Shown piece after piece: positions 7,602 through 58,188 of a stretch of DNA of 64,000 nucleotides. The notes beneath the pieces are model-generated. The model was not told the DNA's origin. It saw only the letters and a list, made by a program, of their open reading frames with translations, and searched no databases. Within the stretch, counting starts at the first letter, position 1, and every line of letters begins with the position of its first letter. Origin of the DNA: Acidimicrobiales bacterium (lineage in GTDB: Bacteria > Actinomycetota > Acidimicrobiia > Acidimicrobiales > Aldehydirespiratoraceae); contig JAKMFW010000047.1 of assembly GCA_022425325.1 (NCBI GenBank), positions 7,608-71,607 on the forward strand, read 5' to 3'. Both the position numbers and the translations under genes were made by a program.

Positions 7602-8123
7602 ATGACCAAGTCGCGACACATCGACGTGCTCGGCACGATCTGGCACACCGATCGCCACGAGCGGACATCGCTCGGTCGCATCGTCGAGGCGGCGAAGGAC
7701 CGCGACGACAGCGCGGCACGTGCCCGCATCGTCGACGAGATCCATTCCTGGGTGGCGGGCGGCGGACTCATGGTCGAACCCGATGCGATCGTCGTCGGCA
7801 TCCCCTCCAGCCCCGATCGACCCAATCTGCTCGTGACGGCGGTTGCCCGAGCGATCGCGACAGCGACGGGGTCCGTCTCGGTCGATGCGGTCGTTCGGCA
7901 TCGAGTGACGGTGCGGCTGCGAGATCTTGATCCGACGGAACGCCCGGCGACGGTTCTCGCTGCGGACTACGAGGTCGTCGAAGACGTTGGGGGCCGCCAT
8001 GTCGTCCTCGTCGATGATGTTGTGCTGAGCGGCACGACCCTCGACCACGTCGCCGACCTGCTGCTCGCTGCCGGCGCCGCCTCGGTGCGACCGGTCGCCA
8101 TCGCCCGATCCCGTCGTGGCTGA
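7602..8123 (+). CDS. Type I phosphoribosyltransferase domain protein (ComF C-terminal-like)
   Basis: PRPP-binding loop HVVLVDDVVLSGTTL and LLAAGAASV. Confidence 0.8.
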   Translation: MTKSRHIDVLGTIWHTDRHERTSLGRIVEAAKDRDDSAARARIVDEIHSWVAGGGLMVEPDAIVVGIPSSPDRPNLLVTAVARAIATATGSVSVDAVVRHRVTVRLRDLDPTERPATVLAADYEVVEDVGGRHVVLVDDVVLSGTTLDHVADLLLAAGAASVRPVAIARSRRG

Positions 8124-8165
8124 GCGTCTGGGTTCACGTACTGCGTGAACCCAGGCAGCGACGTC

Positions 8166-8801
8166 TTATCCGCCGCGTCGCTCCAACAACCGTTCGATCC
8201 AGCGCTCGTAGCTCTCGAGATCCTGCGCGCCCTGCACCGGCAGGACATCGTCGAGCACGATCGTCGGCACGGCGGTGACGCCCTGCTCAATCGCCGCATT
8301 GTGTTCGTCGATCACCGAGGCGGCGTAGACCCGTTCGTTCTCGACGAGGTTGCGGATGAAGCCGCCCGCATCGACCCCGACGTCGGCGGCGAGGTCGGCG
8401 AGTACCTCGGCGTCGGAGATCGTGCGGTTCTCTGCGAAGTACGCGTCCATCAGTCGGCGGTGGTACGCATCGGTCGCCGCAGGAGCAAAGGCCTCCATCG
8501 CCTTCTGGGCGATCTGGGCAGGCATCGAGCCCGATGGCTGGGCGTGGTCGGTGGCCCATACGGAAAAGGTCAGGCTGGGCTCGGCTGATGCCGGTCGCAG
8601 CCAACTCTTCGTGTACTCGACGAATTTCTCGTGTTTCGCCGGGTCGCCGCCGTCGTTGTCGGGGCGAAGCAGAAACGACTTCCACTCGACAGCGATGCGG
8701 TCACTGAATCGCGTCCGGAGCTGCTCGACGCGAACTGCGCCGACGTAGCACCAGGGTCAGAGGAAGTCAGACCAGACAGTCAATCGAACGGGTTCTCCCA
8801 C
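8166..8801 (-). CDS. DsbA/FrnE family oxidoreductase, probable selenoprotein (UGA at 8757-8759 read as Sec)
   Basis: In-frame translation MGEPVRLTVWSDFL-U-PWCYVGAVRVEQL... continues into ORF 8166..8525 with cis-Pro loop GVTAVPT. TGA occupies the first Cys of CPWC. Confidence 0.88.
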
Positions 8802-8898
8802 AGCGGGCACGGTAGCCCGAGGCCGGAGGCAGATCACTCTCATCGGATGCCGACGGGAGGACACGGCGGTTCCTCCCATCGCGTGACAGAGTCATGGC

Positions 8899-9768
8899 AT
8901 GGCCATCTGCGCATTTCTCGGACTCGGTGTCATGGGGTACCCCATGGCCGGACATCTCGTGGCTGCTGGTCACCGCGTCACCGTGTACAACCGAACGACG
9001 GCGAAAGCCGAGCGATGGGTTGCGGAGCACGGTGGGGCGATGGCGACGACTCCGGCTGCTGCGGCCGAGGGCGCCGAGTACGTCTTTCTGTGTGTCGGTG
9101 ACGATCCCGACGTACTCGCCGTGACCACGGGTGCCGACGGCGTCCTCGAGACGATGGGGGAGGGCACGGTGCTTGTCGACCACACGACTGCGTCGGCGGT
9201 CATCGCCCGTGAGGTCCACGCGGCGGCTGCTGCTCAGGGTGTCGGTTTTGTCGATGCGCCGATCTCAGGCGGACAGGCCGGCGCCGAGAACGGGGTGCTC
9301 ACAGTGATGTGCGGCGGCGACCAGGCTGATTTCGATCGGGTTGCCCCGGTGATCGACGCCTACAGCCGTGCCTGCAACCTCCTTGGCGGCCCTGGTTCCG
9401 GTCAGCTCACGAAGATGGTCAATCAAATCTGCATTGCCGGTCTCGTGCAGGGGCTTTCCGAGGGCGTCAACTTCGCCCAGCGGGCGGGACTCGATGTCGG
9501 AAGCGTCGTCGACACGATCTCGAAGGGCGCAGCCGGTTCGTGGCAAATGGAAAATCGGGCCCAGACGATGGCCGACGGTGTCTTCGACTATGGCTTCGCG
9601 CTCGACTGGATGCGCAAGGACCTGCGGATCTGCTTCCAGGAAGCCGCGGCGAACGGGTCAGCGCTGCCGGTGACCGAGATCGTCGACGGCTATTACGAGC
9701 AGCTCCAGGGACTCGGGCTCGGCCGCTGGGACACCAGCACGCTGATCCACCTGCTTCGTCAGGAGTGA
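8899..9768 (+). CDS. NAD(P)-dependent 3-hydroxyisobutyrate dehydrogenase-family oxidoreductase
   Basis: FLGLGVMGYPMA, DAPISGG, GSGQLTKMVNQ motifs. Confidence 0.92.
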   Translation: MAICAFLGLGVMGYPMAGHLVAAGHRVTVYNRTTAKAERWVAEHGGAMATTPAAAAEGAEYVFLCVGDDPDVLAVTTGADGVLETMGEGTVLVDHTTASAVIAREVHAAAAAQGVGFVDAPISGGQAGAENGVLTVMCGGDQADFDRVAPVIDAYSRACNLLGGPGSGQLTKMVNQICIAGLVQGLSEGVNFAQRAGLDVGSVVDTISKGAAGSWQMENRAQTMADGVFDYGFALDWMRKDLRICFQEAAANGSALPVTEIVDGYYEQLQGLGLGRWDTSTLIHLLRQE

Positions 9769-24731: not shown

Positions 24732-25259
24732 ATGGCGATCAGCTTCCTGGACCCACGTGGCGAGTCGGCCGTCGAGCCGACTCCGTATGACCTCTCCACC
24801 CGTCTCGATCCCGGCGTCACGGTCGGACTGCTCGCCAACGGCTTCCCTGGCTCCGTCGAGTTTCTCGACGCGGTCGGCGAAGCGATCACCGCACGGCGGC
24901 CCGGCATCGAGCTTGCACGCTGGAACAAGGGCGACGCCTCGGCCATCGCCAACGACACCATGCTCGGCGAGATTGAAGCCGAGTGTGTGGCGGTGGTCGC
25001 CGCCTACGGGCATTGAGGGAGCTGCACGACCGGCACCGTGCGTGACGGCATCAACATGGCTCGTCGAGACATCCCGGCGGTCGCCCTCGTGACCGACGAG
25101 TTCTGGGCCCAGGGTGACTTCATCGCCACCTCGTTCGGCATGCCCGACATCCCGCGGGTACAGCTCCCGCACCCCGTGGCGGGCACCGGGACCGACAACC
25201 ATCGCCTGGTCGCCGAGAAGATCGCCGCTGAGCTTGTCGCTGCACTCGAGGATTCGTGA
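24732..25259 (+). CDS. UGSC family selenoprotein, copy 1 (UGA at 25014-25016)
   Basis: ORFs 24732..25016 and 25038..25259 are in frame; junction reads AYGH-U-GSCTTGTVRDG...DIPAV...PHPVAG; 175 aa. Confidence 0.88.
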
Positions 25260-57666: not shown

Positions 57667-58188
57667 TCAGTCCTGCGGGCCCGTGAGCTTCGCGATGAGC
57701 GCCTCGACCGTGTCGTCTGCGATCTCGCGCATCTCGTCGTCGGTGCGGTCCTGGATCGGGTGTGGCGTGAAGACTCGGGCGGTGGGGTGCCCGAGCGCCG
57801 TGGCCTGGGTTTCGGCGGCGTCGATGAAACCCTCGGAGGCCACGAAGACTCCCGGGATACCGCGTCGTTCAAGGTCGCTGATGTCGTGCACACTGCACGT
57901 CGTGCAGCTGCCTCAATCGGCGAGCGCCTCGATCACCGCATCGCACGATGTGGCGATCTCGTGGCGAAGATCGACCGGTGCGGGCTTGGCGAAGGTCGGC
58001 TTCATGAAGCGCGTGACCGACGCACCGAGCCCGGTGAGCTTCTCCTCAACTCGGTCGAGGAAGACGTCACCGCGCGGTTTGGAGATGTCGAGGAGTCCGA
58101 TGGTGAGACCGTCGAGCGATTCGGGCCGCGGCACGAGTTCGCGCTGCTCCGGGCGGGACTCGCTGGTCGGGTCGAGGACGGTGGTCAT
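57667..58188 (-). CDS. UGSC family selenoprotein, copy 2 (UGA at 57913-57915)
   Basis: ORFs 57913..58188 and 57667..57891 are in frame; junction ALAD-U-GSCTTCSVHDISDLERRGIPGV...PHPIQD; 173 aa. Confidence 0.9.

Follow-up and report, generated by a model that had tools for sequence, protein, structure and literature searches.

A predicted FrnE-like selenoprotein of Acidimicrobiales with an in-frame UGA at its redox-active site

On the minus strand of the 64-kb stretch of DNA analysed here (hereafter the window), translation table 11 yields an ORF of 119 amino acids at 8166-8525, and the question raised by this locus is whether that ORF is complete or is the remainder of a longer gene in which an in-frame TGA specifies selenocysteine (Sec). 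A preliminary description of this DNA had argued for the latter, proposing that the ORF caller had truncated a DsbA/FrnE selenoprotein. We found that the frame of the 119-aa ORF remains open in the 5' direction through a TGA at 8757-8759 and up to a GTG at 8799-8801, and that U-PWCY is read beyond the TGA, as had been described. With the TGA read as U, there is a single open frame of 211 codons, V/M-GEPVRLTVWSDFL-U-PWCYVG…, which ends at a TAA stop (8166-8168; CDS 8166-8801, minus strand) and of which the 119-aa ORF is a part; translation, Pfam and an AlphaFold2 (AF2) model agree on a DsbA/FrnE-like selenoprotein CDS. The TGA falls within a UxxC redox motif, U15-P-W-C18, in which U15 is the predicted attacking residue and C18, encoded by the TGC at 8748-8750, is the predicted resolving cysteine; C18 is the sole Cys of the whole translated protein.

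We examined this codon in related genomes. All 30 loci retrieved for comparison have the TGA in the same column, as do the best loci of GTDB species representatives (80 of 80). These two sets overlap, and removal of duplicates reduced the 110 loci to 85 distinct orthologue sequences, all from Acidimicrobiales genomes and extending down to about 47% identity. TGA is present in 85/85 of these and the C18 codon is TGC or TGT in 85/85, although the shared ancestry of the orthologues means that such counts are not independent. The residues W-S-D-F-L before and P-W-C-Y-V after the UGA are nearly invariant in the 85 sequences, and the codons 5' of the TGA vary synonymously, with TCT, TCC, TCG, TCA or AGC at Ser(-4) and four different codons at Leu(-1); variability upstream of the TGA is 0.19, 0.12 and 0.40 at the first, second and third codon positions. 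By this pattern of substitution, the 14 codons upstream of the TGA are under purifying selection.

The same codon was followed through wider samples. In the family, 55 of 101 sampled genomes gave a match; 53 of these matches were near full-length and carried exactly one TGA each, and the other two were fragments, one spanning residues 3-26 (TGA included) and the other residues 172-211 alone. None of the 101 genomes showed a full-length Cys orthologue. Across the phylum, a sample of 401 genomes revealed relatives with TGA in two further families (30-46% identity), as well as Cys paralogues at 33-36% identity. One of eight genomes of one family in this sample is an unpublished record, and none of the results depends on it. 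In the full-length database homologues, Cys occupies the U15 column in 16/16 cases, in the context SD[FY]L-C-PWC, in agreement with the proposal that UGA replaces the attacking Cys of CPWC. Moreover, the alternation of TGA and TGC among orthologues, which had been suggested as a check, was observed when metagenomes were scanned with the nearest Cys form as seed: the motif was found in 44 of 48 loci, with TGA in 20 and TGC or TGT in 24. All sampled orthologues keep the Sec codon, and reversion to Cys was seen in a single small sub-lineage.

The preliminary description had named two observations that would speak against a selenoprotein, reads with TGC or TGT at this codon and absence of Sec machinery from the genome, and we found neither. 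Independent assemblies and RNA-library contigs read TGA; one DNA run and the RNA-library contigs of two studies bridge 8757-8759 with the codon unchanged, although these RNA-library runs are contigs in which strand, transcript start and expression level are not readable and DNA may be present, and two sets of them (X16 and X18) cover the stretch only in part. The host genome (2.6 Mb, 66% GC, 95% complete) encodes selA (371.4 bits) and an adjacent selB (288.3 bits), both over their NCBIfam cut-offs, selD (363.7 bits, also over its cut-off), with a single in-frame TGA of its own, and a tRNA-SeC(tca). The host selD is thus itself a selenoprotein gene (…FSHGAG-U-GCKLAP…), and a 6-bp hairpin with the loop GGUCG lies 3' of its UGA.

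The Sec machinery, the conservation of the TGA and of the peptide before it, the Cys of homologues in the same column and the unchanged codon in independent reads form the signature by which selenoprotein genes are usually recognised. With the SECIS element described below, they support the decoding of U15 as Sec, and from them we infer that selenium is in fact incorporated at the UGA. We considered that the UGA might instead specify a standard residue, whether Trp, Gly or Cys, by near-cognate decoding or through an altered code, given that the frame is open under any code in which TGA is a sense codon. This is very unlikely. The Sec system of the host is complete, with a tRNA-SeC of anticodon tca; in the homologues, the catalytic Cys stands at this codon, and a stem-loop with a G-containing apical loop stands at the distance of a bacterial SECIS. 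Furthermore, table 11 ends other ORFs of the window at TGA, and protein-like sites of the UxxC/UGSC type in the window number only three.

In E. coli fdhF, the SECIS is a stem-loop within the CDS that follows the UGA at a short distance and carries G/U in its small apical loop. For the gene studied here, RNAalifold applied to 30 orthologues found exactly one helix, which pairs alignment columns 20-26 with columns 32-38. In the window, this is a 7-bp helix of UCGGCGC (8743-8737) with GCGUCGA (8731-8725) around the loop AGUUC (8736-8732), and it begins 13 nt 3' of the UGA (8725-8743, minus strand). Pairing is seen in 99.0% of the 210 cells; shuffles reach 89.6%, and controls in which the partner was slid by 1-3 columns reach 25.7-44.3%. 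The loop follows N-G-U-N-C, with G and U invariant (30/30). Two of the pairs show compensatory change: one is CG in 20 sequences, GC in 7 and UA in 3, and the other is AU in 14, GC in 11, GU in 2 and UA in 1, with 2 unpaired. The first of these links the third position of a Gly codon with the first position of a Val/Leu/Ile codon, a coupling for which protein constraint alone gives no reason. Five of the seven pairs never vary, and the covariation rests on the two that do, both of which lie in constrained codons.

We compared the hairpin in Sec and Cys forms. In Sec forms from two other families, a hairpin with a GU-containing loop occupies the same position although the peptides encoded there differ (FNGAVRLE, YVGQVVAD), and 9/9 of these forms have 6 of 7 pairs, compared to 2-5 pairs in the Cys paralogues (n = 9). 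Likewise, all 20 metagenome loci of the TGA form have 6-7 of 7 pairs (7 pairs in 14), compared to 6 pairs in 4 and 2-5 pairs in 20 of the 24 Cys loci, comparisons in which all Cys controls other than the nearest Cys form encode different peptides over the hairpin. That nearest form, carried by the metagenome contigs L140/L141 with TGT at the codon, is about 72-75% identical to TGA-bearing forms, and has the same hairpin peptide (YVGTVRL), with 6/7 pairs, a lost C-G pair and two G-U pairs. These sequences suggest that it changed from Sec to Cys recently and that its hairpin is decaying. Since it keeps 6/7 pairs, pairing alone cannot separate Sec from Cys forms.

A single-sequence fold of the 76-nt region was not exceptional (z = -0.47; 63 of 200 shuffles folded equally well or better). 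The lower-stem extension of the helix suggested by the single-sequence fold is not conserved (78.0% paired, compared to 75.1% in shuffles), and we did not retain it. An Rfam scan of 8600-8900 with E values up to 10 found no SECIS family, and returned one chance lncRNA match (12.6 bits). The covariation supports the 8725-8743 helix as the candidate SECIS.

Bacterial SECIS search rules place the element 16-37 nt from the UGA. The preliminary description had pointed to a different hairpin, at 8709-8733 (minus strand), in which TCGCGTC (8727-8733) and GACGCGA (8709-8715) form a perfect 7-bp inverted repeat that starts 23 nt after the UGA, a distance inside this range. Both the repeat and the distance proved correct, and we therefore considered that the SECIS might be this hairpin, or a longer structure containing it, and not the 8725-8743 helix. 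The comparison across orthologues makes this highly improbable. Over the 30 orthologues, the 8709-8733 hairpin is 57.6% paired, compared to a shuffled mean of 54.3%, with no invariant pair; it is already broken in relatives at 92-95% identity, and in related strains found in RNA and DNA runs its 3' arm is altered at 8713 and 8715. The 5' arm of the hairpin and the 3' arm of the 8725-8743 helix overlap and compete for pairing. The lower-stem extension of that helix likewise lacks conservation. Thus, the hairpin first described is a real repeat in this sequence, but neither its conservation nor its role as the SECIS was borne out, and we proceed with the 8725-8743 helix.

We turned to the protein that the 211 codons would encode. 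The Pfam family DSBA (PF01323) matches residues 7-200 across profile positions 2-188 (of 191), with a score of 85.7 bits where the cut-off is 25.6. A search of NCBIfam assigned no specific family, with sub-threshold matches to Rcas_1661 and MJ0307 only; the former (NF041057, Rcas_1661 family thioredoxin-like (seleno)lipoprotein) scored 31.6 bits against a cut-off of 190, over the C-terminal part only, and was set aside. By sequence, the best PDB match is FrnE (5CNW; E 3.3e-20, residues 3-197), with U-P-W-C aligned to 22-CPWC-25 of FrnE, and hence C18 to FrnE C25; the second is SCO1869 (3GL5). The AF2 model, built from an input of 19 sequences, has the DsbA topology (pLDDT 91.6, pTM 0.88), with a strand at 5-11, residue 15 immediately before a helix at 16-35, a helical insertion, and a strand at 180-183 that follows P179. 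P179 (…TAVPTIV…, codon at 8265-8267, minus strand) is invariant in the homologue alignment, and we take it to be the cis-proline of the thioredoxin fold. The top structural match found by Foldseek is again FrnE (TM 0.80), followed by 2IN3, SCO1869, YjbH, DsbM and kappa-GST/HCCA isomerase, other cytosolic DsbA-like proteins, with the periplasmic DsbAs far lower. The identification as a DsbA/FrnE protein with UxxC is thus upheld both by the Pfam match and by FrnE as the best match in sequence and in structure.

The mere 14 residues that precede the active site, with stop codons just 5' of the start in many orthologues, leave no space for a signal peptide or a membrane anchor. This, together with the cytosolic structural neighbours, agrees with the earlier suggestion that the protein is without a signal peptide and probably cytoplasmic. 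In these two features, the motif and the N-terminus, the protein corresponds to the description of the FrnE subfamily (cd03024), which has CP[W/F]C within a DsbA-like domain and a predicted cytoplasmic location. The C-terminal CxxxxC tail of FrnE is absent, as the 211-residue protein contains no Cys beyond C18. FrnE homologues without this tail exist, so its absence does not rule out membership. We conclude that the product is very probably a cytoplasmic thiol/selenol-disulfide oxidoreductase of 211 residues, from the FrnE branch of DsbA proteins, in which Sec replaces the attacking Cys, and that the SECIS is very probably at 8725-8743.

We also considered that the protein might be a secreted or periplasmic disulfide oxidase of the DsbA type, and not a cytoplasmic reductase or isomerase, given that DSBA is the only Pfam family matched. 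We give this little credence, since only 14 residues separate the active site from the N-terminus, with stops directly 5' in many orthologues, which leaves neither signal peptide nor anchor, and since the best structural neighbours (FrnE, SCO1869, YjbH and DsbM) are cytosolic and periplasmic DsbAs rank much lower. Finally, that the gene is a pseudogene or N-terminal remnant, in which the TGA is a true stop and the product is the 119-aa ORF (8166-8525) or none, is scarcely credible: table 11 does yield the 119-aa ORF only, and truncated forms of 119-190 aa are found in public protein databases, but the TGA is fixed in 85/85 orthologues and recurs in Sec forms of other families at 30-46% identity, the 14 upstream codons are under purifying selection, a covarying hairpin lies 3' of the TGA, a 119-aa product would, on the AF2 model, be without strand 1, the active site and helix 1, and the standard selenoprotein signature thus excludes both a pseudogene and a sequencing error.

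Where does translation of this selenoprotein begin? The GTG at 8799-8801 (minus strand), which had been proposed as the start because TACCGT lies 7 nt before it, stands at the aligned start, 14 codons before the TGA, where most orthologues have ATG or GTG, and downstream of the stops mentioned above. TACCGT (8809-8814, minus strand) is a -10-like TANNNT hexamer and a putative leaderless promoter. In a test that allowed 14 codon positions and four spacings, TANNNT was found 5-8 nt before an in-frame start in 68 of the 85 distinct orthologue sequences, compared to a background of 285 of 11369 (2.5%) start-like codons at the same loci. The spacing is 6 nt in 33 sequences and 7 nt in 30, and of the 68 sequences with the box, 50 have ATG or GTG at the position 14 codons before the TGA. 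These counts bear out the proposed start, and the box, like the TGA and its flanks, is conserved much more strongly than chance would give.

In actinobacterial promoters, TANNNT just 5' of the start is the layout of leaderless mRNAs, and the 7-nt spacer here holds no purine-rich Shine-Dalgarno stretch. A scan of 8000-9000 for consensus sigma-70 promoters and intrinsic terminators, which does not seek TANNNT boxes, found nothing. The mRNA is probably leaderless, transcribed from the TANNNT box 7 nt before the GTG. Two RNA-library contigs (X15, record 6; X16, record 10) reach 70-135 nt upstream of the GTG and, if they represent RNA from the minus strand, argue weakly for a leader. In X18, two contigs end on either side of the GTG (8789, 8810), but in one study only, and we do not count this as a finding.

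In the mechanism that we propose, the UGA at 8757-8759 would be recoded during translation by SelB and Sec-tRNA(Sec), recruited by the minimal bacterial SECIS within the CDS (7 bp, 5-nt GU-containing loop, 8725-8743). U15 would act as the nucleophile, and the enzyme would alternate between a selenol/thiol form and a U15-C18 selenenylsulfide. Cytoplasmic disulfides would thereby be reduced or isomerised, as by FrnE, with homology as the guide to a reductase or isomerase role. As the protein has no CxxxxC tail, recycling would take some other route than that of FrnE. A more specific reading, which we put forward tentatively and consider, as a whole, rather less likely than not, is that this tail-less FrnE is an obligate selenoenzyme in marine Acidimicrobiales, made from a leaderless mRNA with the UGA at codon 15 (nt +43) and the SECIS at +59 to +77, and recycled by a partner other than CxxxxC. 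If so, SelB-dependent recoding would take place on a 70S-initiated leaderless message, few codons past initiation, and recycling might occur, for example, directly by thioredoxin reductase or by a low-molecular-weight thiol.

COG2761, under which selenoproteins of this kind have been described, is presumably FrnE. The combination of family and motif has been in print for some time. In the portions of the report available to us, Zhang, Fomenko and Gladyshev (2005, PMC1088965) describe "DsbA-like protein" selenoproteins from the Sargasso Sea (COG2761, UXXC, nine sequences), with widespread Cys homologues and predicted SECIS elements, and word the bSECIS criterion as a stem-loop shortly 3' of the UGA with G in a small apical loop. 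Accessible passages of later work report DsbA-like selenoproteins in deltaproteobacterial and clostridial genomes (2006, PMC1794560), and list a "DsbA-like protein form 1" with PF01323 and UxxC (a 2026 review, PMC13188914). Going by these descriptions, the Sargasso Sea family shares with the gene studied here the Pfam domain, UxxC, marine metagenomic origin, a G-loop stem-loop and Cys homologues; the likeness is one of description (representatives AACY01178397 and NIP15863.1) and does not imply that the clades are identical. In contrast, the SECIS covariation, the order-wide fixation in an actinobacterial lineage and the leaderless layout found here receive no mention in the available portions of the 2005 paper. 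The DsbA-like UxxC family has been known since 2005, and the gene described here is a further member of it.

The closest characterised protein is FrnE of Deinococcus radiodurans (DR_0659; PDB 5CNW and others), which resembles the predicted selenoprotein in having C/U-P-W-C at the same position and no signal peptide. It differs in that Sec takes the place of its first Cys, in a sequence identity of about 28%, and in the CxxxxC tail, which is absent here. According to the sections of PMC8945050 available to us, FrnE is cytoplasmic and has disulfide isomerase and insulin reductase activity, its mutant is sensitive to cadmium and diamide, and its C-terminal CxxxxC (239-244) is proposed to regenerate the active site; the same sections report that the FrnE proteins of S. 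roseofulvus and D. maricopensis also have no CxxxxC tail. SCO1869 (3GL5) and other actinobacterial Cys-type FrnE/DsbA-like paralogues have the same fold and CPWC, but are encoded with TGC or TGT, at 33-36% identity, and have 2-5 of 7 pairs at the position of the hairpin. Like the fdhF-type SECIS and the hairpin of the host selD (6 bp, GGUCG), the element found here is a stem-loop within the CDS, 3' of the UGA and with G/U in the apical loop. It differs from them in being minimal (7 bp, 5-nt loop) with no conserved lower stem, and it is closer to the UGA than the selD hairpin in the same genome.

We examined the distribution of the gene within the family. With the present query, it was not found in three genera (0/3, 0/4 and 0/33 genomes), in which selA is present in 39 of 40 genomes. 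Across the sampled family, selA occurs in 100 of 101 genomes regardless of the gene, so that its co-occurrence is uninformative as support for the selenoprotein. On these counts, the selenoprotein is specific to certain lineages within a family that uses Sec throughout. In a full-text search for "selenoprotein" with "Acidimicrobi", the relevant match was a 2026 Actinomarina preprint, which reports, in the parts available, that there is Sec machinery, with about 5 selenoproteins in each genome, and in whose available text "DsbA" does not appear.

A scan of the whole window for redox motifs containing U gave 172 matches, mostly spurious at 66% GC, of which three are protein-like. The second and third predicted selenoprotein genes both belong to the UGSC family. 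One is on the plus strand at 24732-25256 (TGA 25014-25016; VAAYGH-U-GSCTTG), and matches PF24696 with 147.3 bits and NCBIfam NF041046 with 96.1 bits, under the cut-off of 125. The other is on the minus strand at 57670-58188 (TGA 57913-57915; IEALAD-U-GSCTTC), with 156.7 bits for PF24696 and 154.8 bits for NF041046, over that cut-off.

The value of these results is mainly practical, in the correction of annotation, and current understanding is unchanged, as the family and motif were published in 2005. Standard gene callers reduce the gene to a fragment of 119-190 aa without the active site, and public databases hold such forms for its closest relatives. Thus, the selenoproteome of abundant marine Actinobacteria is under-annotated; this 64-kb window alone holds three predicted selenoprotein genes. 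The covariation-supported minimal SECIS (7 bp, NGUNC), together with the selD hairpin, may serve as a starting point for an actinobacterial SECIS model, of which Rfam has none. The Sec and Cys forms that occur in nature, about 75% identical to each other, would make a clean pair with which to gauge the benefit of Sec in a cytoplasmic disulfide reductase.

The surroundings of the gene gave no lead on its function. It is monocistronic, with a divergent neighbour that is beta-hydroxyacid dehydrogenase-like and a convergent one that has a phosphoribosyltransferase domain and its stop at 8123. Between this stop and that of the selenoprotein gene (8166) lies a perfect 9-bp inverted repeat at 8130-8152 (GGGTTCACG / CGTGAACCC, 5-nt loop); it has no T-run, and was therefore missed by the terminator scan. 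We also note that the MAG contig CAXMSE010000035.1, labelled "uncultured Gammaproteobacteria bacterium", has an orthologue of the TGA form (63% identity) resembling those of Acidimicrobiales, which may reflect a binning or labelling problem.
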